Positions 1-57,881 of a stretch of DNA of 64,000 bases are shown piece after piece. The notes below the pieces were generated by a model. It was not told where the DNA came from. It ran no database searches and was given only the letters and a program-made list of their open reading frames with translations. Position 1 is the stretch's first letter. Each line of letters starts with the position of its first letter. Made by a program: the position numbers and the translations under genes. This stretch comes from Candidatus Multivorans sp. (lineage in GTDB: Bacteria > Acidobacteriota > Thermoanaerobaculia > Multivoradales > Multivoraceae): positions 541,744 through 605,743 of the forward strand of contig OZ250177.1 of assembly GCA_965238135.1 (NCBI GenBank), written 5' to 3'.

Positions 1-921
1 GACGGCGACGGCCTGGTCGATCTCTACGTGGCGAACGACCAGGCGGTGAACCACCTGTGGCTGAACCGGGGCGACGGCACGTTCCGGGAGGACGCGCTGG
101 CGCGCGGGGCGGCGCTCAACGAACTCGGCCAGCCGGAGGCCGGCATGGGGATCGCGGTCGCGGACCCGGACGGCGACGGCGACCTGGACCTGTTCCTGAC
201 CCACCTGGCCGGTGAGACGAACACCTACTACCGGAACGACGGCCACGGTTTCTTTCAGGATGTGACCGACGAGAAGGGACTCGGCGGCGTCAGCCAGGCT
301 TACACCGGGTTCGGCACCTCCTGGTTTGACTACGACGGCGACGGCACGCTCGACCTCTTCGTCGCCAACGGCAAGGTGACGCCGGGCGACACGGCCGCCT
401 TCGACTACCGCGAGCCGAACCAGTTGCTGCGCGGCCTGCCGTCGGGCCGTTACGAGGACGTCTCGGGCCGGGCCGGCGCCGCGTTCGAGCTCCTCGAGGT
501 AAGCCGCGGCGCCGCCTTCGGCGACCTCGACAACGACGGCGATATGGACATTCTGGTGGTCAACAACGAAGGACGGGTCCGGCTGTTGCGGAACGAAGTG
601 GGGAACAGCCGCTCGTGGCTGGCCGTCGACCTCTGCGGCGGCGGCATCCTCGATCGTTCCGCCGTCGGCTCGCGCGTGACCATCAAGGCGGGGGGCAGAA
701 GCTGGACCCGGGACGTGCGGCCGGCGCGCAGCTTCGCCGTTGCCAACGATCCGCGGGTTCACTTCGCGTTCGGTGACACTTCGAGCTTGGATCATCTGAC
801 GGTGCGCTGGTCGCACGGCGGGGTTACCGAGCGTGTGGGGCTGCCGATCAACAGCGTTCTGCGGTTGCTCGCGCCGGGTGGCACCGCACCGGCTGAGGGA
901 GTGTGTCGTGACGCGCGTTGA
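1..921 (+). CDS. ASPIC/UnbV and FG-GAP repeat (CRTAC1-like) protein, 5'-truncated by window edge
   Basis: Frame 1 is open from nt 1. Repeated DxDGDGxxDL FG-GAP/VCBS motifs (DGDGLVDLYVAND, DPDGDGDLDLFL, DYDGDGTLDLFVANG, DLDNDGDMDILVVNN). The C-terminal LTVRWSHGGVTER segment is typical of the ASPIC/UnbV domain. Stop at 919-921. Confidence 0.8.
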   Translation, partial: DGDGLVDLYVANDQAVNHLWLNRGDGTFREDALARGAALNELGQPEAGMGIAVADPDGDGDLDLFLTHLAGETNTYYRNDGHGFFQDVTDEKGLGGVSQAYTGFGTSWFDYDGDGTLDLFVANGKVTPGDTAAFDYREPNQLLRGLPSGRYEDVSGRAGAAFELLEVSRGAAFGDLDNDGDMDILVVNNEGRVRLLRNEVGNSRSWLAVDLCGGGILDRSAVGSRVTIKAGGRSWTRDVRPARSFAVANDPRVHFAFGDTSSLDHLTVRWSHGGVTERVGLPINSVLRLLAPGGTAPAEGVCRDAR

Positions 922-2119
922 TTGCCGGCGACACCGCTCCGGGCGCTCGCAGCGAAAGACCGACGTTCAGAGTAGAGAGTCTCGTCGGAGCAACACCCGT
1001 GCTCTGGGTGCGCGGGCCTTCTGGCCCGCATCCGGATTCCTGGCCGCAGTGGTCGCGTTCACGGCCGCGTGCGGTGAGCCGCCTCCTCAAGCATCGGCCG
1101 CCGAAGAGATCCCCCGCATCCCGAACCTGAGCGAACTCGACCCGGGGTTCGTGACCGCGGTCCGCGACGCGTGGTCAGCCGTCGACCGCGACCCGTCGAA
1201 CGGCGCGGCGGTCGGTGCCTTGGGCCGCCTATACCAGGCGCACCTCTACCTGGACCAAGCCCGGCAGTGCTACGAGCGCGCTCAACAGTTGGATCCAACC
1301 ACCCCCGACTGGCCTTACTACCTCGGCTTCCTGGCCGCCGGCCGCGGCGCCCACGAAGAAGCGGCGGACTACTTCGAGCGCGCCCTGCAACTCCGGCCAT
1401 CGTACTGGGTGGCTCGGGTGCGGCTCGGCAACGCGCTGCTCGCGGCCGCTGACCTCGACGGCGCCGAGCAGGCCTTCCGGGCCGCGCGGTCGGCGGCGCC
1501 GGGCACGCCTTGGGGCGAGCTTGGTCTGGGCAAGACGGCACGGCGCCGGGGACGCTTCGAGGAGGCAGCGGAGCACCTGCGCGCGACCCTTGCGCTCGAC
1601 CCGGAACATCGCGAGACGAGGTATCTGCTGGCGATGACCGAGCGGGAACTCGGCAATCCGGGACGAGCCGGCGAACTGCTCGAGGGACTGGCCAACGCCG
1701 AGGTCTCCAGCCTCGAGGACCCGATGATGCAGGCGGTGTTCGCCTTGGTGCGCGACACGCAGTCGCTGATTCGCACCGCGAACGAGCGTCTGGCGGAGGG
1801 GGACCACCGGACAGCGGAGCGGCTCTACCGTGAGGTGCTGCTGCTGGACCCCGATTCCTACGATGCCCATCTCAACCTGGGCGTGCTTTTTGGGTTGGCC
1901 GACCGGAACCAGGAGGCCGCCGCGTCACTGGAACGGGCGGTCGAGATCGATCCCGAGCGGGCGGACGCGTACGCCCTGCTGACCATCGCCTACATCAAGA
2001 GCGGCCGCGCGGAGGAGGGGCTGCAACAGTTGGAGAGGGCGCTCCAAATCGACCCGGACCATCCCCGGGCCGGCGAGATTCTCTACAGCCTGGGCGGCAA
2101 CCCGGAGCAACTGCGCTAA
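908..2119 (+). CDS. TPR-repeat lipoprotein
   Basis: Multiple 34-aa TPR-like units (e.g. LGRLYQAHLYLDQARQCYERAQQLDP, ADYFERALQLRP, AHLNLGVLFGLADRNQEAAASLERAVEIDP). Lipobox-like FLAAVVAFTAAC follows a basic N-region. Start is uncertain: the most upstream candidate is 833; the GTG at 908 is the first start after the stop of the upstream gene. High GC3 codon usage. Confidence 0.72.
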   Translation: MTRVDCRRHRSGRSQRKTDVQSRESRRSNTRALGARAFWPASGFLAAVVAFTAACGEPPPQASAAEEIPRIPNLSELDPGFVTAVRDAWSAVDRDPSNGAAVGALGRLYQAHLYLDQARQCYERAQQLDPTTPDWPYYLGFLAAGRGAHEEAADYFERALQLRPSYWVARVRLGNALLAAADLDGAEQAFRAARSAAPGTPWGELGLGKTARRRGRFEEAAEHLRATLALDPEHRETRYLLAMTERELGNPGRAGELLEGLANAEVSSLEDPMMQAVFALVRDTQSLIRTANERLAEGDHRTAERLYREVLLLDPDSYDAHLNLGVLFGLADRNQEAAASLERAVEIDPERADAYALLTIAYIKSGRAEEGLQQLERALQIDPDHPRAGEILYSLGGNPEQLR

Positions 2120-2281
2120 CACTCTTGTTTGGTCCCACCGGGTTGGCCCCACCGGGATGGCTCTGCGCCGCCTGGTGGGCGGCGCGCCGGCGGTTGCGCT
2201 TTACTCGGTCTTTACAAACGAAGGGGAGGATCGCGCGCCGTGACCGGAAGTAACGGGGCGCACACCAGAACGAGGGGCACA

Positions 2282-5083
2282 ATGAGAGAAAGCAACGCGA
2301 AGCAGAGAAGCCGGTCAAGTCAGCAAGATCCAATACGGCATGGACGCCGTTTGACCATCCTCGCGCTCGTAGTAGTCATGCACCTGCCGACCCTTTTCGC
2401 GGCTGCCCACGGGCAGACGAACTCGGCACCGGTTGTTCTACTCTCGATCGACGACGTGACCCTCACGGTGGGCTACGGGGCGACACAGTTCGACCTTGCT
2501 ACGCACTTCAATGATCCTGACGGCGATAGCCTCTCGTACGGAGTTTGGCACAGCAACAACGTTGGGGTCCTGTTCTCCGGGAGCACGATGTCTCTGACCG
2601 GCAGGGCAGCCGGCATGAGTACCGTCACAGTGCGAGCCACGGATCCTTCGGACCTCTACGCCGAATTGAGCTTCGCAGCGACGGTCAGAGCGAACACTGC
2701 GCCGGTTGTCCTTCTGCCGATCCCTGACGCGACGCTGACGGTCGGCGGCCGCACCGGGACGGTGGTCCTTTCGTCCCACTTCCAGGATGCTGAGGAGGGC
2801 GACCTGACCTACGCGGCGACATCGGCCGACCCTGCGATAGCGACGGCGACGGTGGCCGAGGGTGTGCTGTCCGTGACTGCCGTTGCGGCAGGAGCGACTA
2901 CCGTCACGGTGACGGCGAGTGACCCGGCCGCGGCGACTTCGGCTCCCGATGTATTCGCGGTGACCGTCGGGTCGCCAGTGAGTGTCACGGTACCGGATGC
3001 CAATCTTCGGACCGCGGTGGAGGCCGCGTTGGCAAGACAGGCCGGCGCGACGATCAACAGTGCCGAGATGGAAGGTCTGGGTCGGCTTGAGTGTGACAGT
3101 TGTGGCATTCAGAACCTCACCGGTTTGGAGTTCGCGACTGGATTGACCGCGCTGGCACTTGGCGGCAACTCGATTACTGACCCGACACCGCTCTCGGGTC
3201 TCACCGGTCTGACGGACCTGGATCTCGGCAGCAACTCGTTGACGGACGTTTCTCCGCTCTCGGGTCTCACCGGCTTGACGGACCTGGATCTCGGCAGCAA
3301 CTCGTTGACGGACGTTTCTCCGCTCTCGGGTCTCACCGGCTTGACGGACCTGGATCTCGGCAGCAACTCGTTGACGGATGTATCTCCGCTCTCGGGTCTC
3401 ACCGGTCTGACGGACCTGGATCTCGGCAGCAACTCGCTGACGGACGTTTCTCCGCTCTCGGGTCTCACCGGCTTGACGGACCTGGATCTCGGCAGCAACT
3501 CGTTGACGGATGTATCTCCGCTTTCGGGTCTCACCGGTCTGACGGACCTGGATCTCGGCAGCAACTCGTTGACGGACGTCACTCCCCTCTCGGGTCTCAC
3601 CGGCTTGACGGACCTGGATCTCGGCGGCAACTCGTTGACGGACGTTTCTCCGCTTTCGGGTCTCACCGGCCTGACGGACCTGGATCTCGCCAGCAACTCG
3701 TTGACGGACGCTTCTCCGCTTTCGGGGCTCACTGCCCTGACCGACGTGGAACTCGACGGCAACTCGCTGACGGACATCTCTCCGCTCTCGAGCCTGACCA
3801 GCCTCAGCCGACTGTATCTGCGCCACAATTGCCTTACGGGTATTCACGCGCTGACGAGCAACACCGGCTTGGGCCAAGGCGACCACATCGCGCTCGAGTG
3901 GAACCCTCTGGTAGCGAGCGCGGTTGCCGGCGATCTTGCCGCGCTGCGGGGCCGCGGAGTGACCGTGCTGGTCTCGGAGACGGCCTCGGTTGAAGTCGTA
4001 GCCCCGCTCAACGTGAGCGCGACCCCCGGTGACGGCGAACTGACATTGACCTGGGACTCCCCTCGAGACCCGGACGACGTAACCGTCTACGAAGTGCGCT
4101 GGCGTTCGGCCACGGGGACGTTCAGCGCCTGGACGATCGTTCCTTGTTCGTCAAAGCGCCGGCACAAGCTGACCGGTCTGGACAACGGCACGGCCTACAC
4201 GGTTGAACTACGGGCCGCAGGCCATGCCGACAACGGCGTCGCGACCGTAGGCCCCACAACAGTGAGGCCGCCCAACAGGGCACCGGTTGTCTCGCTCTCG
4301 ATCCCCGACGTGAGTCTCACAGTCGGCTACGGGGCGACGCAGTTCGACCTGTCGAACCACTTCAGCGACCCGGACGGCGACGAGCTCCTGTTTACAGCCA
4401 GCCCCCCGACTATCGTCACCGCCACCGTCACCGGAAACACGATGACCGTGGCACCGGTCGCAGCGGGCACTGGCGTGGCCACTGTGCGGGCGGCGGATCC
4501 TTCGGGACTCTTCGTTGAGCAGACGTTCAACGTGACCGTAGGCGCCAACGGCGCGCCGGAGGTGTCGCTGGCCATCGACAACATGACGCTCACGGTTGGT
4601 GGCCGGTCGGAAACCGTCACATTGTCAGCGCACTTTCGGGATCCCGAACAGGGGGCGCTGACCTACTCGTCCGTTTCCGCAAGTCCCGCCGTGGCAACCG
4701 CCACGGTATCTGATGGAGTACTGACAGTGAGCGGGGTGTCGGTCGGGACCGCACGGATGACCGTCACGGCGAGTGACCAGGGCGGCGCGACATCGGCTGG
4801 CGCTGTGTTCACGGTGACGGCAAGGGCCGCCGTGAATGTCGAGATACCGGACGCCAATCTCCGCACCGCCGTGGAACAGGAGTTGGGCAAACAGGCGGGG
4901 GCGACGATCACCAGCGCCGAGATGGAACAGATCGTCAGCTTCATGTGTCAAGATTGCAACATTGAAGTCTTGAGTGGTTTGGAGTACGCGACGGGAATGA
5001 CGGACCTCGACCTTGGTGACAATGTTTCAATTGCGGATCTGGCGGCTCTCTCAGGTCTCACTAACCTAACCTTGATTCGCTAG
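2282..5083 (+). CDS. Giant surface protein, 5' portion (signal peptide, 3 cadherin-like/Ig-like DPDGD domains, ~9 LRRs with LRR C-cap, FN3, 2-3 more cadherin-like domains, LRRs); truncated by IS insertion at 5066-5069
   Basis: ATG 2282 preceded by a GAGGGG RBS. Signal peptide RLTILALVVVMHLPTLFAAAHGQ. Repeated ~95-aa domains with a xxHFxDPDGDxLxY motif. 22-aa LRRs LSGLTGLTDLDLGSNSLTDVSP. FN3 segment VYEVRWRS...TAYTVELRA. The reading frame runs straight into the IS terminal inverted repeat, which supplies the stop (LIR*). Confidence 0.85.
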   Translation: MRESNAKQRSRSSQQDPIRHGRRLTILALVVVMHLPTLFAAAHGQTNSAPVVLLSIDDVTLTVGYGATQFDLATHFNDPDGDSLSYGVWHSNNVGVLFSGSTMSLTGRAAGMSTVTVRATDPSDLYAELSFAATVRANTAPVVLLPIPDATLTVGGRTGTVVLSSHFQDAEEGDLTYAATSADPAIATATVAEGVLSVTAVAAGATTVTVTASDPAAATSAPDVFAVTVGSPVSVTVPDANLRTAVEAALARQAGATINSAEMEGLGRLECDSCGIQNLTGLEFATGLTALALGGNSITDPTPLSGLTGLTDLDLGSNSLTDVSPLSGLTGLTDLDLGSNSLTDVSPLSGLTGLTDLDLGSNSLTDVSPLSGLTGLTDLDLGSNSLTDVSPLSGLTGLTDLDLGSNSLTDVSPLSGLTGLTDLDLGSNSLTDVTPLSGLTGLTDLDLGGNSLTDVSPLSGLTGLTDLDLASNSLTDASPLSGLTALTDVELDGNSLTDISPLSSLTSLSRLYLRHNCLTGIHALTSNTGLGQGDHIALEWNPLVASAVAGDLAALRGRGVTVLVSETASVEVVAPLNVSATPGDGELTLTWDSPRDPDDVTVYEVRWRSATGTFSAWTIVPCSSKRRHKLTGLDNGTAYTVELRAAGHADNGVATVGPTTVRPPNRAPVVSLSIPDVSLTVGYGATQFDLSNHFSDPDGDELLFTASPPTIVTATVTGNTMTVAPVAAGTGVATVRAADPSGLFVEQTFNVTVGANGAPEVSLAIDNMTLTVGGRSETVTLSAHFRDPEQGALTYSSVSASPAVATATVSDGVLTVSGVSVGTARMTVTASDQGGATSAGAVFTVTARAAVNVEIPDANLRTAVEQELGKQAGATITSAEMEQIVSFMCQDCNIEVLSGLEYATGMTDLDLGDNVSIADLAALSGLTNLTLIR
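3191..3784 (+). repeat. Nine tandem 66-bp repeats encoding 22-aa leucine-rich repeats; the first eight are >=90% identical at DNA level
   Basis: Unit ctctcgggtctcaccggcttgacggacctggatctcggcagcaactcgttgacggacgtttctccg is reiterated head-to-tail with only a few substitutions per copy. The last unit (3719-3784) is more diverged. Confidence 0.9.
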
Positions 5084-6575
5084 AAACTTCACGCACAGAT
5101 GGCGTTCTGGATGGCAAGGAAATGGTTGGCGACGGCTGGCGAGGCGCCGAGATGGAGCGTCGTCTTTCCTCTCGGTCTCAGCAGGACGGCGGCTCGTCCG
5201 AGGAGCTTGTAGCGGAGGGTGTGGATGCTCTGGAATCGGCGGCGCGTGCGGCGCTTGCGGTTGGTGTTCCTGGCCGGGGCGAGGGTTTGGGCCTGGAAGG
5301 CTCGGGAGAGGTTGAAGGCGAGCACGCTGAGCATCTGCCAGGCGGCGTTGGCGTGCTCTTCGAGGCTGGGCACGCAGTCGAAGGCGAAGCCTCCCTTGAG
5401 TTCGCCGTAGACCTTCTCGTGGCTGCCCCGGCCGTTGTAGAAGTGCCACAGGGTACGGCCCTGAATGCGCTTGTTGGTGAGGATGGCCGAGTACTCGTAG
5501 TGGCCGTCGTCGGGATCGAAGAGGTCGAGCTGGAAGTTCTTCCTGGTCTCGTGCGCGACATGGCGCCGGTAGAGCACGATTCTGCGGACCCGGCCCCAGA
5601 GCGTCTGCCGGGTCTCGTAGCACCAGGTGCGGTCGTCGACGCGCTTCCAGTGCGCCCTGGCGGCGATCTGCTTGAAGTCCAGCCACGGATAGAACGGGGC
5701 CTTGATCGCGTACTCGACGCCTGCGGGGTCGAGGACATCGAGCAGGTCTTCGCGGAAGAAGGCCCCGTCCATGCGGAGTTCCAGGATGCGGCGCTTGCCC
5801 ACGGCGTCGCGGACCTGCCGGATCAGGTCGTCGATGAAGCCGACGGCGGCCTTGCCGTCGTGGATGTTGCCGGGGCGGTTCCGGAGCCGCACGATCTGCC
5901 CCTCCTGGGCCTCGCAGGCGGTAACCGGGTAGTAGCTGGGGGCCTTCCGGCGGTGGGGGTTGTAGCCCCGGAAGGCTCCCTTGACCTTCAGTCCGGTGCT
6001 GACCACCGAACCATCGACGTCGAGGGTGAGCCGGCGACCGCCGGTCCGCCGCAAGACGTTCCCGACCAGCTCCTCGTTGAGCTTCGAGAGCCGTTCCACG
6101 TCCTCGCTGCGGATGCGTTGCATCCAGGCGCTCGCCGTCCGCGGCGCCGGCAGCCTGGAGAGGCCGGCGAAGCGGGCCAGGACGGGGTCGCCCTGCTCGT
6201 GGCGCAGGTGCAGGATGCGCCTTCCTCCGACCAGGATCAGGCCGAGCAGGACCAGGATCATCGGCACGGCGCCGAAGTCGGTGGCGGGGAATCCCGAACC
6301 CACGGCGCGGCGGAGAATGGCGACGAAACCGCTTCGTTTCATGTACTCCCGGACCAGCTCGAGCCCGGCATGAGAGGTAACTTCCTGGCGCCCGGTTCTG
6401 TAATGCGCGTTGCCGTTGACACGGCGCTTCAGATCTGCTCTTCTAGATCGCACTGGGAGTGGCCTTTCGTGGAGGGCGTTCGTGATCTATTCCAACCACG
6501 AGAATACCCCATCCCGCAAGGCCCTCCCGGCCTTCACGTCAGGTCGAACTAACGCATTGTTCTAGCGAATCAAGG
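5070..6575 (-). mobile_element. Intact insertion sequence of the IS4 superfamily (IS701/IS1380-like), 1,506 bp, with 16-bp perfect terminal inverted repeats and a 4-bp target site duplication CTAA
   Basis: Left TIR ccttgattcgctagaa at 5070-5085 is the exact reverse complement of 6560-6575. Flanking direct repeat ctaa at 5066-5069 and 6576-6579. Removing the element and one ctaa restores a continuous LRR reading frame (GLTNLRSLLLFGNAITDLSPLSGLT). Contains a single 454-aa transposase ORF. Confidence 0.9.
5089..6453 (-). CDS. DDE transposase, IS4 superfamily
   Basis: 454-aa ORF occupying the IS interior. Carries the Y(2)R(3)E(6)K signature (YNGRGSHEKVYGELK) characteristic of IS4-like DDE transposases. 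Confidence 0.8.
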   Translation of the reverse strand: MRSRRADLKRRVNGNAHYRTGRQEVTSHAGLELVREYMKRSGFVAILRRAVGSGFPATDFGAVPMILVLLGLILVGGRRILHLRHEQGDPVLARFAGLSRLPAPRTASAWMQRIRSEDVERLSKLNEELVGNVLRRTGGRRLTLDVDGSVVSTGLKVKGAFRGYNPHRRKAPSYYPVTACEAQEGQIVRLRNRPGNIHDGKAAVGFIDDLIRQVRDAVGKRRILELRMDGAFFREDLLDVLDPAGVEYAIKAPFYPWLDFKQIAARAHWKRVDDRTWCYETRQTLWGRVRRIVLYRRHVAHETRKNFQLDLFDPDDGHYEYSAILTNKRIQGRTLWHFYNGRGSHEKVYGELKGGFAFDCVPSLEEHANAAWQMLSVLAFNLSRAFQAQTLAPARNTNRKRRTRRRFQSIHTLRYKLLGRAAVLLRPRGKTTLHLGASPAVANHFLAIQNAICA

Positions 6576-8051
6576 CTAAGGAGCCTGCTGCTTTTTGGCA
6601 ACGCGATCACGGACCTGTCGCCACTCTCGGGCCTCACTGCCCTCGCGGAGTTGGAACTCGACACCAACTCGATCGCGGACGTGTCGCCGCTCTCGGGTCT
6701 GACTGGACTTTCCTCGCTGGATCTCGCCGGAAACCGGATCACGAGTGTGTCGCCGCTCTCCGGTCTTTCCGGCGTTGAGGGGCTGAATCTCTCCACCAAC
6801 GGGATCACGGACGTATCGCCGTTGTCGGGGCTGACCGCCCTGAGACGTCTGTACCTTCGCAACAACGCGATCGCGGACATAGCGGCGCTCTTGGGCCTCA
6901 CGGACCTCAGGCAACTGAACCTCGATGGCAACAGGATCACGAATGTGTCTCCGCTCTCAAGTCTGACGAAGCTCGATCGGCTGGTTCTCCAGAACAACTC
7001 GATCGCGGAGATAGCGCCACTCTCAGGTCTCACCGGCCTTACGCAACTCGACCTCGACGACAACTCGCTCACGGCCCTGGGTGCGCTCTCAGGCCTGACG
7101 AATCTCAGGTGGCTGTATCTTGAAAGGAACTGCTTGACGAGCATCGACGCCTTGACGAGCAATACTGGATTGGGTGCCGGTGACCGCATCGGACTTCGGG
7201 AGAACGCCCTGGACGCTGACTCGCTCGCCAACGGCGTAACCGCACTGCGGGACCGCGGAGCGACCGTCCTAGTGACGGAGGCGCCGACGGCCAGAGTCGG
7301 CGCGCCGGCACACCTGATTGCGATGCCGGGGAACGGGGAGCTAGCTCTGACCTGGCCTGCCCCGCGAGCCGCGGTCGACATCCCGGCTTATGAGGTGCGC
7401 TGGCGTTCGGCCATCGGGACCTTCAGCGATTGGTCGACCGTTCCGTGCTCGTCGAAGGGTCGGCACCTGCTGAGTGGTCTAGTCAACGGCACGACATACA
7501 CGGTGGAACTACGGGCGGCTGGCCATGTCAGTAATGGCGTGAAGAGCGTTACCGCCACACCCACCAGCACGGCCGTTGTCGAGCCGGTGGAGACGATGTT
7601 GTGGGCAGCTTTGACGACACCGGGTGAGGTACCGTCGATATACGACGACACCTTTGAGTGGCTAGTCTCGGCGAGAGGAGCTTGGCCGATGCTGGTAGCG
7701 GAGGCGACCGTTTACCAGCCGCCGGTATACCTCCGTGAACTTGAGATTGCTCAGGGTCAGGAGCGAGGTTCCCACGTTGAGATTGCGCTCTCGACAACAT
7801 CGACGGGTTTGTCGTCGCTACCACCGTGGATGTTCGGTTGGCGAGTCCTGTTCTCGGTTCACGATGTCGGGCTGAACGAAGCGCTCCTCGACGAGGACGG
7901 CTTACCGCTTGTTCAAGCACAACTGAATGCTCGCGGGGAGGGCCGGTTCGCTGGAACGCTCGAGGGCGAGCTCGACACGTTCTGGGCCGCGATCTCGGAT
8001 AGCGGCGACTACGACTGGAGTGAGGGCCTGTACGTTGAACTGAGGCCCTGA
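6576..8051 (+). pseudogene. 3' portion of the IS-disrupted giant surface protein gene (LRRs, LRR C-cap, FN3, C-terminal domain of unknown function)
   Basis: Frame is open from the first base after the right IS end (LRSLLLFGNAITDLSPLSGLTALAELELDTNSIADVSPLS...). It continues the LRR register of the upstream fragment and has no signal peptide or start of its own. It repeats the module order of the upstream part (LRR - LYLxxNCLTxIxALTSNTGLGxGD cap - FN3 YEVRWRS...TYTVELRAAGH). Confidence 0.85.
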
Positions 8052-8090
8052 AGGTGGGGCTCCCGTCGTGTGGACGGGAAGCTGCGTCAG

Positions 8091-8240
8091 TTGGAGAAGG
8101 CGCTTGAGATCGACGCGGATCACCCGCGCGCTCTGCAGGTTCTTTTCCACAGCCTGGACGAAACTAGGAATTCCGGCTAACATTCTTTGTTTGGCCCCAC
8201 CGAGACGGCTCTTGCGCCGCCTGGTCATCGGCGCGACGGA
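8091..8240 (+). repeat. ~150-bp degenerate duplicate of the TPR-gene 3' end plus downstream leader (copy of 2030-2190)
   Basis: 8091-8180 encodes LEKALEIDADHPRALQVLFHSLDETRNSG*, paralogous to the TPR protein C-terminus LERALQIDPDHPRAGEILYSLGGNPEQLR*. It is followed by the shared motif ctaacaYtctttgtttggYcccaccg...ggctctKgcgccgcctggt in both copies. Roughly 75-80% identity. Confidence 0.75.
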
Positions 8241-8527
8241 GTTGCCTTGGTGGGACCCTGAGTCGGGCCGGTCCGGGTTGGACAAGTGCCTGACCGGGAG
8301 CGGCTTGGAGTCGAACGGGCAGTCGGAAGAATGATCGTCGCGGCCGTCGGCCGCGAGACGCCTCCGGGCTTCATCGGGTTTTTTCCATTCCCAGGGAGAA
8401 TCACCAGGGCGTGATCGGTTTTGTCCGATACGCCCGCAGGAGTATTGATCGTGTTTCCGTCCCAGGCTGTCCCGAGGGCGTGTGGATGGCTTGGTGGAAG
8501 GTCGACTAACTAAGTGGGGGGCAATAG

Positions 8528-11500
8528 ATGAGTTGGACGTTTGGTCGCGCGGCATTGCGTGTGGCGGCGGGCTGCGTGTTGGTCTTTGGGGGGACAGGGC
8601 TTGCGTTCGGGCAGATCGTGATCAACGAGTTCATCCAGGACCCGACCCAGGTCAACGACAACGCCGGAGAGTGGTTGGAGCTGTACAACGCGGGCGGTAC
8701 GCGGGTCGACATCAATGGCTGGAAGCTCGATGACGACGCCACGCTGACCGGAGACCACACGATAAACAACGGCGGAAGCCTGTGGATCGAGATCGGTGGC
8801 TACCTGGTCCTGGGAATCAACGACGACACTGGGACCAACGGCGGCGTGACGGTCCACTACGAGTGGAGCAGCTTCGGTCTGACCCAAGGCTCGGACAAGA
8901 TCATCCTGCTCAACGCCACGAACGCCGTGCAGGACCGGGTCGAGTACGACGACGGCGCCACCTTCCCGGACGCCAGCGGCGCTGCCGCGGCCCTCAGGAG
9001 CCCGGACCTGCCCAACGACGTGGGCCGCAATTGGTGCGAGGCGACGACGCCCTACGGCGACGGTGACAAGGGCACCCCCGGCGCCGCGAACGACTGTCCG
9101 CCTTTGATCCCCTCAATCGACTGTTCCGGTGGGGTTGCAATTCACGTGATTCAGGGCAGCGGCGCCGCTAGCCCCTGTACGGAGCAAGACGGGATGGCAA
9201 CCACGAACGACAACATCGTCACCGCGGTCGGTGCCGGTGGCTTCTTCATCCAGACGCCGACGGCGAGCAGCGACAACGATGTCGACACGTCGGACGGCAT
9301 CTTCGTCCTGTACGACGGTACGACGATGATCAACGTCGGCGACCAGGTAGATGTCACCGGAACGGTCGAGGAGTTCTTCGCCTTCACGCGGATCGATGCG
9401 ACTACGTCGGTTACCGACGCCTCGGTGACGATCGATGCCAGCAACCAGACGTTGCCCGCGCCGGTCGAGTTCGGCGCGACGGTGCCTTCGCCCGACCCCG
9501 CCAGTCCAAGTTGTGCGATCGAATACGAGTGCTACGAGGGCATGCGGATTCGGGTCGCGACGGGCACGACAAGCACGCCGAGCCAGTCCTTCGGGGGGAG
9601 GCAGCCGGACCCGGTGGCCGAGATGTTCGTCACCCCGACCTCGTCACGAGCTTTTCGCGAAAAGGGCGTCGAGTACCCGGGTTTGACCTCAAATCCCGGT
9701 ATTCCGGTGTGGGACGGCAATCCGGAGCTGTTCGAACTGGACCCCGACAAGCTGGGGCTGCCGAACGCGTCCTGGGTTCCGGGGACGACGTTCTCCGCCA
9801 CCGGTGTGCTTGGCTATGACTTCGGCGACTATGAGATTTGGCCGACCGAACTGAGGCGCCTCACCGCGGCGCCTCCGCTGCCGCATCCGGTGCGAGTGAG
9901 AACAGCGGGTGAGGTCTCTGTCGGCTCGCTGAACATGTTGAACCTGAATGACGAATCGTCGAACTACAACACCAAGCTCAGCAAGCTGTCGCGCTACGTC
10001 CGTCAGGTGCTCAGGTCGCCCGACATCCTCGGAGTGCAGGAGGTGAACACGATCACGGCGCTCACGGGCCTCGCCGCCAAGATCCGGGCGGACGATCCGA
10101 GCGTCAACTACGCCGCCTACCTGGAGGAAGGGCCAATAGCCGACAGAATTGACGTCGGCTTCCTCGTGCGCTCGGGGGTTACTGTCCAATCGGTGACCCA
10201 GCTCAACAAGACCGAGACCTTCCTCAACCCGACGACGAACATGAACGATATCCTGAACGACCGGCCACCGTTGCTGCTGGAGGCGGCCGTTGAGGGCATT
10301 GAATTCTCGGTCCTCGTCATCCACAACCGCTCGCTTAGAACCTTCGAGACCGAGCGAGTCCAGGCGAAGAGACTGGCGCAGGCGCAGTCCGTCGCCCGCA
10401 TCGCGCAGTCGCGCCAGAGCTCGAAGCTGGTCATCGTGGGGGACTACAACGCGTACCAGTTCACCGATGGCTACGTCGACGTTGTGGGCCAGATCTCCGG
10501 CAACGTGACGCCGAGCGAGAACCTTCGCTCAGGACCGGATCTGGTCACCCCGAATCTCGTCAATCTGATTGACCGTGTGCCCGAACCGCAGCGCTACTCC
10601 TACATCTTCGAAAACAACATGCAGGTGCTCGACCACGCTCTCGTGAACCAGGAGATGGTTGGAAGCGTCGTCGGGATCACCTATGCCCGCGGCAATGCGG
10701 ACGCCCGCCGCTCAGTGGAGGAGGACAATCCGGACTCGGCTCTATTCGCTTCCGACCACGACGGTTTCGTGGTCTATCTGTCGGCGCCGGGGAATCCCGC
10801 TCCGCCGGCCAGTATCAATCCGGACATCGGCGGTGGCGGCGAGCCCGAGCCGGATCCCGAGGCCGACCTCGACCTCGACGCGGAGAGCCAGATCGTCTCG
10901 GCGAGCAAGGTCCGGTACAGCGTCAACGTCGAGAACGCCGGGCCGGGTACCGCTCGGAACGTCGTGGTCACGAGTACCTTCTCAGGTGCGGCCGTCTCGG
11001 TCGTGGCGACGACCTCCGGCTGCGACGAGGATCCGGATGGTGTGCCCGACTGCACCTTGGGCGACATCGCGGCAGGCGACTCGGCCTCCTTCACCATCGA
11101 TGTCGATACCGGTGGGGCAAGCGAATCCTCGCTCAGGTACAACGGTTCCGCCGGCAGCGACACGACGGACCCGGCGCCCACGGACGATGACGACTCCGTC
11201 GTTCAGCCGCTTGGGCCGCCGAACGCGCCGTCCGATCTCACCGCGACCGCGATCAGCTCGACGGCGATCGAGGTCCGCTGGCGGGACAACTCGCGCGTGG
11301 AGACCCAGTTCGATGTCTTCTTGCAAGGTCCGGGCGACCCCAGGCCGCGGTTGTTCGGGTCCGTGCCGGCGAACAGGACATCTCTGGTCGTCGACGACTT
11401 GGTGCCAAGCGTCACGTACGACTTCGCGGTCGAGGCGCGGAACGGGCTGCTCCGCTCCGGGCGGACGCCGACGTCGACCGCGACCACGTGGGACGAGGCG

Positions 11501-12952
11501 GATCTGCGCATTGAGGCGGAAGGCCTGATCGTCTCGGAGGAGCTCGTCCGCTACACCGTCAGCGTCAGCAACGCAGGTCCCGAAGATGCAGCGACTGTCG
11601 TCGTGACCAGTGCTCTGATGGCGGCGGAAGGCGCTTTCGAGACTTCGACGTCCGGCTGTCGCGAGGATCCGGGTGGGGTGCCGGAGTGCAGTCTGGACGA
11701 CATCGACGTCGGAGAGTCGGAGTCGTTCACGATCGATGTCCGGATCGAGGCGGCGAGCCGGAACTCGCTCACGTACGGCGGCGCTATCGGCGACGCGGCG
11801 GATCCGAGAACTGACGCACGCATGGTCGAGATGACACTGCCTCTTGGTCGGCCCGAAGCGCCGTCCCATCTCGAGGCCTCCGCGGTCGGCGGGATGGAGG
11901 TCGAACTCCGGTGGCGGGACAACTCGGACAGAGAGACGGGATTCGGCGTCTTCCTGCAGGGACCGGGCGACTTGAAGCTGAGGATGATCGGAACGGCGCC
12001 GGCGAACACGACCTCAATGGTCGTCAACGAACTCGTACCGACCGTCACCTACAGCTTCGCCGTGGAGGCTCTGAACGGAGCGCTTCGTTCGGAGCGCACG
12101 CCCGAGGCCACGGCGACCACCTGGACCGCGGATGCGGCCCGATGCGGCGAAGAGGACGCTCTGTGCGTCGGGGCTTTTCAGGTGGAGGTCGAGTGGGACG
12201 ACGGCAAGGGCCGGATGGGGCGGGGATTCGCCGAGCGCCTGACGGCGGATGCCGGAGACTTCTGGTTCTTCCATCCCGCCAACATCGAGCTCGTGGTCAA
12301 GGTGCTGAATGGCTGCGCGATGAACGACCACTACTGGGTCTACGCCGCCGGCTTGACGGATGTTGGAGTGACGATGACGGTGCGCGATCTCCGTAACGGC
12401 GTCGAGAAGAGCTGGACGAACCCCCTCGGCAGGCGGTTCAGGCCGATCACGGATTCCTTGGCGTTCGCCACCTGCGACAGCGGACCGAGCGTGACCACTC
12501 AGAGCCGGAGCGTGCTGAGCGGCGCCCCGCGGGGCCGGGGCGAAGAGCTGTACGAGGCCAGCCTGAGCGCTGCCGACCTGATCGACTCGGCCAGCAGTGC
12601 TTGCACTGCGGGCGACGCGACCCTCTGCCTGATGGGCTCACGTTTCGAAGTGCGGGCCGACTGGGAAGTCGGTGGTCAAAGCGGCTTCGCAACCGCCATT
12701 CCGCGCACCCCGGATACGGGGATGTTCTGGTTCTTCAGCTCGGACAACGTCGAGCTGGTGGTCAAGGTGCTCGACGGCTGTCGAGAGAACGGTTACCGAT
12801 GGGTGCTCATGGGTGGCTTGACCGACGTTGGAGTGGAGGTAACGGTGACCGACAGCGAGTCGGGCAAGGCGAAGATGTACCGGAATCTCGAGGGGACGCC
12901 GTTTGCGACGATGTTCGACGTGACCGCCTTTGCCTGCAGCGCGGGGCCGTAG
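8528..12952 (+). CDS. Secreted multidomain extracellular nuclease: signal peptide, lamin-tail domain (LTD), EEP-family nuclease domain, two DUF11-like + FN3 modules, and two copies of a C-terminal Cys-containing domain of unknown function
   Basis: GGGGGG RBS then ATG. Signal peptide ALRVAAGCVLVFGGTGLAFGQ. LTD motif IVINEFIQDP...GEWLELYN...VDINGWKLDD. Endonuclease/exonuclease/phosphatase motifs (VGSLNMLNLND..., GVQEVNT, VIVGDYNAYQF, SDHDGFVV). Duplicated DUF11-like units (VRYSVNVENAGPGTARNVVVTS..., VRYTVSVSNAGPEDAATVVVTS...), each followed by an FN3 (IEVRWRDNS...TYDFAVEA). Two ~115-aa C-terminal repeats with four conserved Cys (C...LC...FWFF...VELVVKVL(N/D)GC...). Architecture resembles ExeM/NucH-type extracellular nucleases. 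Confidence 0.8.
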   Translation: MSWTFGRAALRVAAGCVLVFGGTGLAFGQIVINEFIQDPTQVNDNAGEWLELYNAGGTRVDINGWKLDDDATLTGDHTINNGGSLWIEIGGYLVLGINDDTGTNGGVTVHYEWSSFGLTQGSDKIILLNATNAVQDRVEYDDGATFPDASGAAAALRSPDLPNDVGRNWCEATTPYGDGDKGTPGAANDCPPLIPSIDCSGGVAIHVIQGSGAASPCTEQDGMATTNDNIVTAVGAGGFFIQTPTASSDNDVDTSDGIFVLYDGTTMINVGDQVDVTGTVEEFFAFTRIDATTSVTDASVTIDASNQTLPAPVEFGATVPSPDPASPSCAIEYECYEGMRIRVATGTTSTPSQSFGGRQPDPVAEMFVTPTSSRAFREKGVEYPGLTSNPGIPVWDGNPELFELDPDKLGLPNASWVPGTTFSATGVLGYDFGDYEIWPTELRRLTAAPPLPHPVRVRTAGEVSVGSLNMLNLNDESSNYNTKLSKLSRYVRQVLRSPDILGVQEVNTITALTGLAAKIRADDPSVNYAAYLEEGPIADRIDVGFLVRSGVTVQSVTQLNKTETFLNPTTNMNDILNDRPPLLLEAAVEGIEFSVLVIHNRSLRTFETERVQAKRLAQAQSVARIAQSRQSSKLVIVGDYNAYQFTDGYVDVVGQISGNVTPSENLRSGPDLVTPNLVNLIDRVPEPQRYSYIFENNMQVLDHALVNQEMVGSVVGITYARGNADARRSVEEDNPDSALFASDHDGFVVYLSAPGNPAPPASINPDIGGGGEPEPDPEADLDLDAESQIVSASKVRYSVNVENAGPGTARNVVVTSTFSGAAVSVVATTSGCDEDPDGVPDCTLGDIAAGDSASFTIDVDTGGASESSLRYNGSAGSDTTDPAPTDDDDSVVQPLGPPNAPSDLTATAISSTAIEVRWRDNSRVETQFDVFLQGPGDPRPRLFGSVPANRTSLVVDDLVPSVTYDFAVEARNGLLRSGRTPTSTATTWDEADLRIEAEGLIVSEELVRYTVSVSNAGPEDAATVVVTSALMAAEGAFETSTSGCREDPGGVPECSLDDIDVGESESFTIDVRIEAASRNSLTYGGAIGDAADPRTDARMVEMTLPLGRPEAPSHLEASAVGGMEVELRWRDNSDRETGFGVFLQGPGDLKLRMIGTAPANTTSMVVNELVPTVTYSFAVEALNGALRSERTPEATATTWTADAARCGEEDALCVGAFQVEVEWDDGKGRMGRGFAERLTADAGDFWFFHPANIELVVKVLNGCAMNDHYWVYAAGLTDVGVTMTVRDLRNGVEKSWTNPLGRRFRPITDSLAFATCDSGPSVTTQSRSVLSGAPRGRGEELYEASLSAADLIDSASSACTAGDATLCLMGSRFEVRADWEVGGQSGFATAIPRTPDTGMFWFFSSDNVELVVKVLDGCRENGYRWVLMGGLTDVGVEVTVTDSESGKAKMYRNLEGTPFATMFDVTAFACSAGP

Positions 12953-13095
12953 CCGGCGCCGCTACTCCGGCGTGTACCAGATCGGCGACGTGTAGGCGCG
13001 CTGCCGGGTGACCATGTAGCCGGGGGCCCGGTGGGCTATCGTCGGCCGGTCGAAGGCGGCGGAGTCGCGCCGCATGGAACGCGGAGGCAGGTCAC

Positions 13096-14145
13096 ATGGG
13101 TGAAGGCGGGAACGTGTTGAAGGCGGTTCAACTGGGGCGGAAGTGCGGGCTCCGGGTGTCGGAGTTGTGCCTGGGGACGATGAACTTCGGCGAGCCGGGC
13201 CGGGGTCACCAGGGTGACTGGACGCTCGACCTGGACGCTTCGCGCCCGATCTTCCAGGCGGCGATCGAGCACGGGTTGTTCTACTTCGACTGCGCCGACA
13301 TCTACGGCATCGGCGCCTGCGAGCGACTCGTGGGTTCGCTCCTGCGCGAGCTGCTGCCGCGCGACGAGTACGTCCTCTCGACCAAGGTGTCGATGCCGAT
13401 GGGCAGGTCGCCGAACCAGGGCGGCCTGTCGCGCAAGCACATCATGGAAGGGGTCGACGGCTGTCTGAAGCGTCTCGGTCTCGACTATGTGGACCAGTTG
13501 ATCATCCACCGCCATCCGCACGGGATTCCAGGTCAGGTGCGGGCGCCGATCGAGGAGACGATGGAGGCCCTGCACGACGTGGTGAAGGCCGGCAAGGCGC
13601 TGTACCTGGGCGCCTCGTCCATGTACGCGTGGCAGTTCGTGGAGCTCCAGATGACGGCGCGGCACAACGGCTGGACCGAGTTCGTCTCGATGCAGAACCA
13701 CTACAACCTGGTGTACCGCGAGGAGGAGCGGGAGATGAACCCGTACTGCGCCCGAACCGGCGTGGCGCTCACGCCGTGGTCACCGCTTGCGCGCGGCATC
13801 CTCACCGGTTCCTACAAGGGCAGCTTCGATGAGGGCGGCACCGACCGCTCGAAGGGCGGCGACCGGGTGCGCACGGAAGGCCTGTACCGCGGCGCCGCCA
13901 CGTTCGACATCGCCGACCGCGTGGTCGAGGTGGCGAAGAAGTACGGCCGCACGCCGGCGCAGATTTCGCTTGCCTGGCTGGTGAACAAACCCGAGGTCTG
14001 CGCGCCGGTGGTGGGCGTGTCGAAGGTCGGCCAGTTGGAGCAACTCGTCGAGGCGACGAAGATCGAGCTCGACGCGGAAGATGTGGCCTACATGGAGGAG
14101 CTGTACCAGCCGGTGGAGAACCTGCTGGCGCTCGGCCACTCCTGA
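13096..14145 (+). CDS. Aldo/keto reductase family oxidoreductase
   Basis: N-terminal LRVSELCLGTMNFG and ...DCADIYG...E..VG motifs; typical AKR (Kv-beta/YajO-like) length and conservation. Start may be the GTG a few codons downstream. Confidence 0.8.
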   Translation: MGEGGNVLKAVQLGRKCGLRVSELCLGTMNFGEPGRGHQGDWTLDLDASRPIFQAAIEHGLFYFDCADIYGIGACERLVGSLLRELLPRDEYVLSTKVSMPMGRSPNQGGLSRKHIMEGVDGCLKRLGLDYVDQLIIHRHPHGIPGQVRAPIEETMEALHDVVKAGKALYLGASSMYAWQFVELQMTARHNGWTEFVSMQNHYNLVYREEEREMNPYCARTGVALTPWSPLARGILTGSYKGSFDEGGTDRSKGGDRVRTEGLYRGAATFDIADRVVEVAKKYGRTPAQISLAWLVNKPEVCAPVVGVSKVGQLEQLVEATKIELDAEDVAYMEELYQPVENLLALGHS

Positions 14146-14251
14146 GGGGTTTGTGGCCGCGCGCCGCGCCCGCTGCCGCGACGACAGCACGGCGCCTCAG
14201 CCCAGGCGCTATCATCGGCACCGATCTTCGCACTCAAAGGGGGAACCCCGG

Positions 14252-16108
14252 TTGCAGCATCGCGCCCTTCCTGGATTTCGCACGGCAGCGGTGGCCGCCT
14301 GCGCGCTTTCGCTCGCGGCGCCGGCCCTCGGCGCGCCGGTCGACTCCGCGCTGCACGCCTGGATCGGCGACCTGGAACCTCTCGCTGAAGCGGAGTTCGG
14401 CTACGAGCAGGCGGCGCATCTCCTGGAACGCGCCGGTTTCGGCGGCACGCCGGCGCAGATCGAGGAACTCGTCTCCCTGGGCCTCGAGGGTGCGGTCACG
14501 AGACTCGTGGACTACGAGCAGGTAGACGACTCCGATCTTCCGCCCTTCGACGAATCGGGGATCTGGGACAGGGGGATGGACCCGTTCCCGGCCAGCCGCG
14601 CCCAGGCGGTGCGGATCGGGCGCCGGGACGGAAGGGCGCTGGGCGTCGATGTGCTGGCCGAAGGGTCCTCGCGTCCGGTGCAACCCGTGGTCGACAAGTT
14701 CTTCTACGGTCTGCGCAGCAACGTGCTGGAAACGCGGCGGCTGGCGTTGTGGTGGGGCAAGCGCATGGTCACCACACCGCGGCCGCTCGAAGAGAAGATG
14801 ACCCTCTTCTGGCACGACCACTTCGCGACCTCGGAGGTCAAGGTCCGCGACGTCCGGAAGATGGCCCTGCAGAACCGGACCCTGCGCGCCCACGCCACCG
14901 GCGACTTCCGCAGTTTGGTGCTCGCGGTCATGCGCGACCCGGCGATGCTCGTCTACCTGGACAACCGGGAGAACGTAAAGGACCACCCGAACGAGAACTT
15001 CGGCCGCGAACTGCTCGAACTGTTCACGATGGGCCTGAACAACCTGGGAAACGCGAGCAACTACACCGAGCAGGACATCCGGGAGGCTTCGCGGGCGTTC
15101 ACCGGCTGGACCAACGACGTGCTCGACTTCCGGTTCGACGCCGAACTCCACGACGACGGCGCCAAGACCTTCCTGGGTCGCGAGGGCAACCTGGGCGGCG
15201 AGGACGTGCTCGACACCATCCTCGAGCAGCCGGCAACCGGCGAGTTCATCGCCGGCAAGCTCTTCCGCTACTTGGTGCGCGCGGATTTGGCGCCCGCGCT
15301 CCAGGCGGAACTGGGGCGTCGCCTGCGGGAATCCGGATACGAGTTGAAGGCTCTGCTGCGCACGATCCTCTCGTCGCGCGACTTCTACAGTCCGCCGTCG
15401 GTCGCGACGCAGATCAAGAGTCCGGTCCAGCTTGTCGTCTCGACCTACCGGAAACTCGGCGCCCCGACCGCGCCCACAGTGCCGGACATGAACAGTCTGA
15501 CCGGCCGTCTGGGGCAACAGTTGCTCTACCCGCCGAACGTCGCCGGCTGGGCGGGCGGACGGACCTGGATCACGCCGGCGACGCTGCTCGAACGGGGCAA
15601 CGCGATGCGCTCCGTGCTCTTCCCGCCCAGTCTCGAAGAGTTCGGACACCCGGACCGGCGCATGCCGGGCATCTACCGGCAGGTCGGCGAGCGGTTGGCG
15701 CAGGGCATGACGATCACGGCGGCGACGAAGCAGGGCGATGCGGCCTCGAACGCGATGGCCGACGCCGACGAGGAGTACAACACGCGGTACGGCGGCTACC
15801 GCGGCTACGCGATGGCGTACGAACGGGTCAAGTTGGTCCCGCGTCACGTCCTCGACGTCGACCTGCGCGCCATGGTGCTGGCGGCGGGAGCGACCGACGC
15901 GGAGGGGGCGGTCGACCATCTGCTGCGCCGGTTCCTGCGCGTGCCGGTGACCGAGCCGGGCCGCCGGGCGTTGGTGGACTACCTTGCCGCGGAACTGGAT
16001 TCGATCGCGCTGGACGAAGAAGCCGAGGGAGCGCCGGGGAAGGTGGAGAAGGCGCTCCGTTCGACGCTCTACCTGGTCTTCAGTTCGCCGGAGTACCAGT
16101 TGGGCTGA
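14252..16108 (+). CDS. DUF1800 domain-containing protein (secreted)
   Basis: TTG start 7 nt after an AAGGGGGA RBS. Signal peptide FRTAAVAACALSLAAPALGAP. Conserved WHDHFATS motif typical of DUF1800. The track start at 14081 is too far upstream and has no RBS. Confidence 0.75.
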   Translation: MQHRALPGFRTAAVAACALSLAAPALGAPVDSALHAWIGDLEPLAEAEFGYEQAAHLLERAGFGGTPAQIEELVSLGLEGAVTRLVDYEQVDDSDLPPFDESGIWDRGMDPFPASRAQAVRIGRRDGRALGVDVLAEGSSRPVQPVVDKFFYGLRSNVLETRRLALWWGKRMVTTPRPLEEKMTLFWHDHFATSEVKVRDVRKMALQNRTLRAHATGDFRSLVLAVMRDPAMLVYLDNRENVKDHPNENFGRELLELFTMGLNNLGNASNYTEQDIREASRAFTGWTNDVLDFRFDAELHDDGAKTFLGREGNLGGEDVLDTILEQPATGEFIAGKLFRYLVRADLAPALQAELGRRLRESGYELKALLRTILSSRDFYSPPSVATQIKSPVQLVVSTYRKLGAPTAPTVPDMNSLTGRLGQQLLYPPNVAGWAGGRTWITPATLLERGNAMRSVLFPPSLEEFGHPDRRMPGIYRQVGERLAQGMTITAATKQGDAASNAMADADEEYNTRYGGYRGYAMAYERVKLVPRHVLDVDLRAMVLAAGATDAEGAVDHLLRRFLRVPVTEPGRRALVDYLAAELDSIALDEEAEGAPGKVEKALRSTLYLVFSSPEYQLG

Positions 16109-37270: not shown

Positions 37271-37360
37271 GGGGGTTCCTTTCGGTGGGGTTGCTTGCGC
37301 GGCAGAACTACCGGATGCCGGCGGGGACGCCGCCGCACCCAGTTTGTGCCGCGCAAGTTG

Positions 37361-57704: not shown

Positions 57705-57881
57705 GAGTCAGAGATGTTGGAACATCCGGTTTGTTTTGTCAACACTGAACAAGATGAACGGCATGAACAGGCTGGTCCTTGCAGAGAGCCGGTGCCGGTC
57801 CTAGGAGCTTGCGCGGCAGAGACTGGGTGGGCCGGCGTCCCCGCCGGCCTCCGGGAGTTCTGCCGCGCTAGGCTCGCGGCG

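Follow-up and report, generated by a model that had tools for sequence, protein, structure and literature searches.

In the CDI (contact-dependent inhibition) cdsA-CT and Rhs loci, orphan 3' fragments that lack a gene body stand in tandem behind a full gene, and such arrays are formed and reshuffled by homologous recombination. A doubled gene end is also found where the e14 prophage resides in icd of Escherichia coli, and a 163-bp pseudo-icd' has been described there (PMC6379469). Here, an arrangement of comparable geometry was analysed in a stretch of 64,000 nucleotides (nt) from Candidatus Multivorans sp. (assembly GCA_965238135.1, contig OZ250177.1, positions 541,744 to 605,743 of the forward strand), which is called the window below and to which all coordinates without a locus label refer. 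The last codons of a TPR lipoprotein gene and the non-coding DNA behind its stop codon (copy A) are repeated in diverged form (copy B) beyond a giant LRR gene that is split by an insertion sequence (IS), directly ahead of a gene for an LTD-containing extracellular nuclease. We consider it likely that copy B is the displaced end of the same TPR gene with a leader that has become duplicated, and that the LRR module came to lie in between through recombination among modules that was not site-specific. A literature search on Ca. Multivorans returned nothing specific.

Two copies of a TPR gene end

A repeat linking the regions 2030-2190 and 8091-8240 had been noticed in a preliminary description of this DNA, with an identity put at ~75-80% and with the condition that it should not fall to background once gaps were scored. 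The repeat is real, and no such fall occurred. The gapped local alignment of copy A (2020-2201) with copy B (8081-8248) scored 96, compared with 20.5 +/- 2.5 (maximum 31) for 500 dinucleotide-preserving shuffles, which places it ~30 standard deviations above them. The identity had been overestimated: it was 68% in the coding tail (~100 nt), 76% in the first ~80 nt 3' of the stop and 70% over 177 gapped columns by blastn. The two TAA stops (2117-2119 and 8178-8180) share one MAFFT column, and the similarity runs on for ~80 nt past them into non-coding DNA. The longest exact run is about 12-13 nt and there is no long identical core, the two copies being as diverged from each other as alleles of different species. 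Copy A additionally contains a 14-nt tandem duplication at 2128-2156 (TTTGGTCCCACCGGG / GTTGGCCCCACCGGG). No third copy of the repeat was found within the 64-kb window.

The translation of copy B ends in LRQLEKALEIDADHPRALQVLFHSLDETRNSG before the stop, and the gene body upstream of it is absent, in agreement with the earlier claim of a TPR remnant. Homology is clear from 8081 and weak from about 8066; 5' of 8081 no TPR homology is left in the translation, which meets the stop codon of the LRR gene. The neighbours reported for copy B, an IS-split surface-protein gene before it and an LTD-nuclease gene after it, were both confirmed by Pfam and sequence.

Two observations concern the reading frames at this place. 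The TPR-tail relic is in the frame of the LRR gene, with only the TGA at 8049-8051 between them (...ELRP, stop, RWGSRRVDGKLRQLEK...), which is probably a coincidence with 1 chance in 3. The open reading frame (ORF) 8068-8334 (88 aa), which lies in another frame than the relic, had no Pfam hit and was treated as spurious.

Ancestral gene order in related genomes

Gene order was compared in 39 genome loci and the leader motif was sought in 44 related loci, labelled L001-L044; the genome loci are titled Ca. Multivorans, Thermoanaerobaculia or Holophagales. From isolate names that resemble those of published marine-sponge metagenome bins, we infer that the lineage is sponge-associated. In L001, L002 and L003/L004 the order is YHS-ASPIC-TPR-(352 nt)-LTD-AKR-DUF1800-DUF1501 and no LRR gene is present. 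The TPR gene is followed directly by the LTD nuclease gene, long or short, in about 31 of the 39 genome loci, and the empty site, TPR-leader-LTD without insert, was seen in L001, L002, L008, L009, L015, L021, L022, L042 and others. The ASPIC gene is the conserved upstream neighbour of the TPR gene in all of them (39/39), and in the window the AKR and then the DUF1800 genes stand 3' of the LTD gene. As a separate observation, about a dozen genomes have, in the place directly 3' of the TPR gene, a short LTD-less form of the nuclease instead of the long one.

Window positions 8061-8540 align with the TPR tail of the relatives and with all of their intergenic region as far as the LTD start codon (ATG). 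In the window 347 nt separate the stop from this ATG, compared with 352 nt in L001. A profile of 347 positions built for the TPR-LTD leader matched window 8178-8530 from end to end (E 6e-88), and the same profile matched window 2117-2191 with its positions 1-64 only (E 4e-4). These alignments identify copy B as the native TPR 3' end with the native leader of the LTD gene, the LRR gene lying in between. Copy B is thus orthologous and syntenic to the single copy of the relatives, as in a segmental duplication.

The tail and leader together with a giant gene had been interpreted as a cassette that was duplicated, leaving a remnant of a TPR gene. The unit does recur in L003, L005, L006 and L044. 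However, no second complete TPR gene was found at this spot in the sampled relatives, and although copy B is indeed a TPR remnant, it is better described as the displaced end of the one TPR gene, of which L006 keeps 81 codons.

Complementary decay of the two copies

The tail of copy A is 70-82% identical to orthologous tails, whereas the tail of copy B has 68-76% identity to all others and is the most diverged of the 18 tails compared. For the leaders the relation is reversed. The first ~80 nt are 80-89% identical to orthologs in copy B and 63-78% in copy A, and over its full length the B leader is 82% identical to that of L008 and 64-73% to the others. Decay of the A leader is stronger in L006 and L044 than in the window. 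As judged from these identities, each half of the duplication has decayed where it was redundant, the tail in copy B and the leader in copy A. The description of the second copy as degenerate is therefore appropriate for its coding tail only, the B leader being ancestral and well conserved while the A leader decays.

The relic of the window retains the family-consensus residues LRQLEKALEID and FHSL, and its indels are codon-sized, which argues that it formerly belonged to a working gene rather than being a degraded copy of A. In L003 the homologous relic is frameshifted. The TPR gene now ends in copy A, and the coding part of copy B is a non-functional relic.

Probable shortening of the leader in copy A

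The homology of copy A probably extends further than the repeat. Window 2197-2257 matches the middle of the leader of L009 (score 36 vs 16.2 +/- 2.3, z 8.5), and a profile of the three A-type copies (window, L006, L044) matches positions 173-238 of the L009 leader collinearly (E 1e-6). Except for L009, the 3' part of the A-side intergenic region gave background scores against B-type leaders. The ribosome-binding site (RBS) of the LRR gene, GAGGGG at about 2268-2273, lies in a context (ACCAGAACGAGGGGCACAATG) that resembles that of the LTD genes (ACCAAAAGAGGGGCAACAAATG). Together with the collinearity of the leaders, this likeness places the start codon of the LRR gene where the LTD gene has its own. 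The A leader, which also contains a perfect 8-bp GC hairpin at 2165-2185, is probably a whole leader that lost about 100 nt internally and that remains homologous down to the LRR start, as suggested by the one significant match (L009) and the collinearity. The earlier suggestion of a leader shared by the two giant genes thus holds in the sense that both stand behind homologous leaders.

Other arrangements of the locus

Further copies of tail and leader were found in relatives. L003/L010 have copies at 11117-11338 and 20485-20702. In L005 a 523-nt repeat with 80% identity (10997-11519 vs 13447-13969) surrounds an IS and covers the TPR tail, the leader and 53 nt of the LTD gene. The relic of L006 has 81 codons and is split by the same IS as that in the window. 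L044, which was found through a 92%-identical LRR N-terminus, has the modules in reversed order: an intact TPR gene with a full B-type leader and an LTD gene, then a tail relic of ~50 nt, an A-type leader, the LRR gene and a second LTD gene. The relics therefore differ in length among genomes (about 50 nt, about 105 nt, 245 nt). The presence of stranded tails and leaders in varied orders in L003, L005, L006 and L044 indicates that TPR tail, leader and giant secreted-protein gene form a unit that is reshuffled, occurring one to three times and in either order.

The window is collinear with L006 over 1-3790, across the junction of TPR and LRR genes, and with L003 over 7086-8690, across the LRR end, relic, leader and LTD gene. 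The LRR C-terminus (...SEGLYVELRP before the stop) is common to all three. Since the junctions are common to the window, L006 and L003, they were inherited or exchanged and are not specific to the window. The relics of the window and of L003 are shortened forms of the L006-type relic. Other cargo was also seen in the slot. L031 has a 1070-aa protein with weak M12/reprolysin similarity (11078-14290), and L017 and L029 (about 11250-13440) have the order TPR-LRR-LTD without relic and without leader.

Some observations were made beside these arrangements. Two LTD-nuclease genes occur at the locus in L003 (11568-13964), L013, L023 and L044, one of them often fragmented. A partial TPR copy was found in L043 at 10001-10576 (OX638294.1 at about 4.36 Mb), comprising the C-terminal 192 residues with 72% identity; it lies near a Metallophos gene, elsewhere in the genome that holds L031, and is a partial duplication of the wider locus.

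Structure and possible function of the leader

The sequence after the TPR stop is no random spacer. It is conserved at the TPR-LTD junction in at least 12 related genomes, as had been supposed when it was called a shared leader, and its pairwise identity is 58-93% where the TPR proteins of the genomes compared share no more than 70-80%, an argument for selection. Several hairpins were predicted in it by RNAalifold. In the predicted structure 94% of the cells pair, against 38-48% with the partners slid, and 14 of the 80 pairs are changed on both sides, the structure being derived from the same 13 related sequences. The covariation score, likewise for a structure taken from the same alignment, was 0.259 compared with 0.226 for shuffles (0/500 reach it) and 0.08-0.13 for slid partners, a modest signal. 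In hairpin 3, one position has A-U, G-C or U-A and another C-G or A-U. The inner stem of hairpin 1 (GCGCCG...CGGCGC) never varies and could thus equally be a DNA operator.

Strong hairpins lie 3' of both stops (2165-2185 and 8196-8254), and neither is followed by a T run. At the lone terminator-like site (8363-8388), TTTTTT comes after a weak stem of 5 bp (8363-8378); the scan gave as many sites as expected from shuffles. No sigma-70-like promoter was found in 1900-8700, no Rfam family matched this region at E <= 1 and none reached the gathering score in the whole window. A helix was predicted between UUUGGCCCC (8190-8198), just after the TPR stop, and the GGGG of the RBS about 330 nt downstream, which would cover the Shine-Dalgarno sequence and the start codon; L003_2 offers a single compensatory case, and in L005_1, a dead copy, the helix is broken. 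From this modelling the leader is probably a structured 5' untranslated region (UTR) of the LTD mRNA, hairpin 1 of which may double as the 3' end of the TPR transcript, and sequestration of the RBS by UUUGGCCCC is weakly supported.

The motif of hairpin 1 (TTGGCCYCAC N8-16 GCCGCYTGGTYAWCG) was not found in JGI metagenome contigs nor in viral contigs. The leader apparently represents an undescribed RNA-like element that is restricted to this genus-level group. The preliminary description had further suggested a search for the motif ahead of other large secreted-protein genes. The motif is no general mark of such genes: in the 44 related loci it was found nowhere but at this locus, and it is missing from the LTD and LRR genes of L017 and L029.

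Insertion sequence in the LRR gene

The LRR gene is interrupted by an IS1380-family element whose transposase scored 226 bits with NCBIfam transpos_IS1380 (cut-off 180). The insertion duplicated a 4-bp CTAA target (5066-5069 and 6576-6579) inside the LRR gene. The two parts 2282-5069 and 6580-8051 are one gene, which is in frame by frame arithmetic once the IS is removed, and L044 carries this gene, 88-92% identical, uninterrupted at the exact insertion point. In L002, an IS1380 element splits the LTD gene, and both there and in the window the insertion duplicated a 4-bp CTAA/TTAG target. The element of the window is 99.7% identical to two copies in L002 (11791-13305, 20272-21173), while the TPR protein of L002 is only 78% identical, which points to an element that was recently active and is shared between species. 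The ~180-nt repeats were also considered as a target-site duplication of a transposon. This was rejected, since they abut no inverted repeats and the IS has its own CTAA duplication.

Origin of the duplicated gene end

In the explanation that we favour, the ancestral order is ASPIC-TPR-leader-LTD nuclease-AKR, and 8081-8527 is the old TPR 3' end with the whole leader of ~350 nt, still joined to the LTD gene. What now separates the TPR body from the old tail is an LRR gene that is preceded by a TPR tail and a shortened leader of its own. The duplicate would presumably stem from segmental duplication or from recombination within an array of modules, each made up of TPR tail, leader and giant secreted-protein gene. 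Starting from an array of three modules, as in L044 or L003, recombination between tails could give the order in the window, and IS elements would have added further breaks to the locus. A body-less copy, relaxed constraint and a syntenic ortholog, as expected of a segmental duplication with a pseudogenised remnant, were all found. Several points weigh against this explanation. The event that first joined the LRR gene to a copy of tail and leader was not observed, and no clean breakpoint appeared in the TPR gene when sliding-window identity was calculated for 16 relatives, the pattern being mosaic. The divergence of A and B is at the level between species, so that duplication in place would look the same as import by recombination. 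The arrangement in L017 and L029 implies that the LRR gene may have entered the slot more than once, or that relics can be lost, and the relic-bearing genomes are only about 4-5, some with shared ancestry. Concerning the leader, its structure was predicted on the alignment that was also used to count pairs, and GAGGGG precedes every LTD gene with or without leader, which weakens the idea of RBS sequestration.

A compositional or chance match of TPR-like GC-rich sequence has a negligible probability: TPR repeats are degenerate and common, and the region has 62-68% GC, but the alignment score had already refuted it, the match continues ~80 nt into non-coding DNA and each copy has orthologs at the corresponding place in other genomes. 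It is also very improbable that the repeats are attL/attR-like ends of an island that integrated site-specifically into the TPR 3' end and brought a replacement end with it. The geometry is indeed that of e14 in icd, with direct-repeat gene ends of which the proximal completes the gene and the distal is a relic, and with empty sites in relatives. However, neither an integrase or other recombinase nor a phage gene was detected between or beside the repeats (Pfam, every ORF of at least 200 aa in 2.1-8.5 kb), the interval consisting of one LRR gene and an IS1380 element with its own 4-bp target duplication. Furthermore, the longest exact run is about 12-13 nt at an identity of 68-76%, the relic boundaries vary among genomes (about 50, about 105, 245 nt), the motif is absent from viral contigs and no tRNA serves as integration target. 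With no integrase, no core, variable boundaries and no tRNA or viral match, the likeness to e14 in icd is a geometric analogy only. A further explanation is that the relic was kept as functional DNA, for example because a promoter or operator of the LTD gene lies within the last ~100 nt of the TPR gene; rearrangements that keep the downstream gene expressed must then carry the tail along. Every stranded leader does keep at least ~50 nt of TPR tail (window B, L003_2, L005_2, L006_2 and the A module of L044), CAGTTGGAG and CTAACAT hardly vary, whether in relics or in intact tails, and the relics of L005 and L006 keep an open frame with conservative changes. Nevertheless, we regard this as unlikely, given that the relic in the window is the most diverged tail of all, L003_2 is frameshifted, relic lengths vary, no sigma-70-like promoter was found in 1900-8700, and the LTD genes of L017 and L029 manage without tail or leader; the sample is also small and partly non-independent.

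Two routes for the A module (TPR 3' end, L009-type leader and LRR gene) were considered, formation in place and import from another lineage. Import by homology-facilitated illegitimate recombination, with a crossover placed within the TPR gene and an illegitimate join 3' of the LRR gene, would need no duplication in place. We hold it to be possible though doubtful, and the strongest competitor of those weighed here. For the middle of the A leader the sole match is the leader type of L009, which belongs to a more distant group (z 8.5; E 1e-6); the B-type leaders of the closest relatives of the window do not match it. The LRR gene is 88-92% identical to that of L044 where the flanking TPR gene is only 79% identical, and GC is lower across 2-13 kb. 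The IS, 99.7% identical in L002 despite 78% TPR protein identity, is a sign of recent DNA exchange between lineages. However, no donor with TPR-leader-LRR and without relic was found, the TPR gene has no visible breakpoint, and the A tail is not distinctly L009-like. In addition, the LRR body of L044 is separated from the A leader by an IS, and recent exchange need not have involved tail or leader.

Features of the locus and neighbouring observations

The features are collected in Table 1. Orthologs of the TPR protein form about 60 clusters in Acidobacteriota metagenome-assembled genomes, with 70-80% identity and lengths of 360-430 aa. The product of the LRR gene had an internalin-like match below the cut-off, and the NCBIfam ExeM_NucH_DNase match of the LTD nuclease was likewise below the cut-off.

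Table 1 Features of the duplicated gene end and its surroundings (window coordinates)
Feature	Position	Strand	Basis and remarks
FG-GAP / ASPIC-UnbV gene, 3' part	28-921	+	Pfam FG-GAP_3, UnbV_ASPIC
Intact TPR lipoprotein gene	908-2119	+	Many Pfam TPR families; stop TAA 2117-2119; start GTG at 908 inferred
Copy A, coding part	2020-2119	+	Working last ~33 codons of the TPR gene; local alignment; 70-82% identity to orthologous tails
Copy A leader, shortened, before LRR gene	2120-2281	+	5' ~80 nt homologous to B leader; orthologous LRR-upstream copies in L006, L044
LRR / Ig-like / fn3 giant secreted-protein gene, 5' part	2282-5069	+	Pfam LRR_4, LRR_8, He_PIG, Big_9, fn3
IS1380-family insertion sequence	5070-6575	-	Pfam DDE_Tnp_1_4; transposase 6453-5089; 16-bp terminal inverted repeats
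LRR gene, 3' part	6580-8051	+	Pfam LRR, fn3; stop TGA 8049-8051
Copy B, coding relic	8066-8180	+	Last ~33-38 codons of a body-less TPR gene; stop TAA 8178-8180
Copy B leader, full native TPR-to-LTD	8181-8527	+	End-to-end alignment with the intergenic region of relatives; probable structured 5' UTR
Hairpin 1	8196-8254	+	Inner GCGCCG/CGGCGC stem 8214-8234
Hairpin 3	8337-8355	+	RNAalifold prediction
RBS GGGGGG	about 8513-8518	+	LTD gene
LTD / ExeM-NucH-like extracellular nuclease gene	8528-12952	+	Pfam LTD, Exo_endo_phos, DUF11, fn3; synteny in relatives

In the LRR gene, positions 3137-3830 (block 3005-3900) hold about 10 near-identical repeats of 66 nt (22 residues) with 87-100% identity, and a second, more diverged repeat block follows the IS (6570-7130). 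L044 and L006 differ from the window in the number of repeats, suggesting that the array expanded or contracted recently. GC over the LRR and LTD genes (2001-13000) is 60-67%, mostly 62-66%, compared with 66-72%, mostly 67-72%, in the flanking ASPIC, TPR and AKR/DUF1800 genes. Elsewhere in the window, a GC-rich palindromic intergenic sequence of ~72 nt (GCGCGGCAGAACT.CCGGA.GCCGGCGGGGACGCC...TGCCGCGC) occurs twice, at 37294-37365 and 57800-57871, on opposite strands, 20 kb apart and with 88% identity. No Rfam family matches it and none of the 44 related loci contains it. It may be a repetitive extragenic palindrome (REP)-like or miniature inverted-repeat transposable element (MITE)-like repeat, or a small RNA.

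Meaning and comparison with known systems

The feature is an ordinary rearrangement scar at a hypervariable secreted-protein locus, and it challenges no known mechanism. It shows the way in which the set of very large secreted proteins is remodelled in a host-associated bacterium. The slot between the TPR lipoprotein and extracellular nuclease genes repeatedly gains, loses and reorders cargo, and these events have left stranded tails and leaders as their record. An annotation should list 8081-8180 as a fragment of a pseudogene and, instead of a small ORF, a conserved non-coding leader at 8181-8527. A bolder idea is that TPR tail and leader are a portable docking and regulatory module, that is, a slot in which giant secreted host-interaction genes are added, swapped or reordered by homologous recombination. 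The cargo so far would be an internalin-like LRR protein, an ExeM-like nuclease and an M12-like peptidase, and if the idea is true, a portable leader would put the cargo genes under a common post-transcriptional control such as RBS sequestration. We consider the idea quite unlikely to hold in this form.

The locus has features in common with several known systems. As in pseudo-icd' of e14 and phage 21, a gene 3' end is present twice in direct orientation, the proximal copy completing the gene with a sequence that differs slightly and the distal one being a relic (about 160 bp for e14). Unlike in e14, there is no integrase, phage gene or identical crossover core, and the insert is a single LRR gene with an IS; moreover, the repeat runs into a long leader, the copies are about 70-76% identical and the relic boundaries vary. 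The conserved leader of ~350 nt, with its predicted hairpins and some compensatory changes, is by analogy like 5' UTRs that occlude the RBS, such as riboswitch platforms and RNA thermometers, but it belongs to no Rfam family, has no identifiable ligand pocket and is apparently limited in distribution to one genus-level group.

From general knowledge, the orphan fragments of CDI and Rhs systems each start with a stretch homologous to the main gene, and the same holds here. However, in those systems the variable part is a toxin tip with its immunity gene, whereas the repeated piece at this locus is a non-variable TPR end with leader and the cargo is a separate downstream gene (LRR or nuclease). 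The direct repeats, one of which is orthologous to the single copy of the relatives, and the decay of each where it is redundant are as in ordinary segmental or tandem duplication. Unlike in an ordinary duplication, the duplicated unit spans the end of a gene together with regulatory DNA, and modules with different cargo are repeatedly bounded by it.

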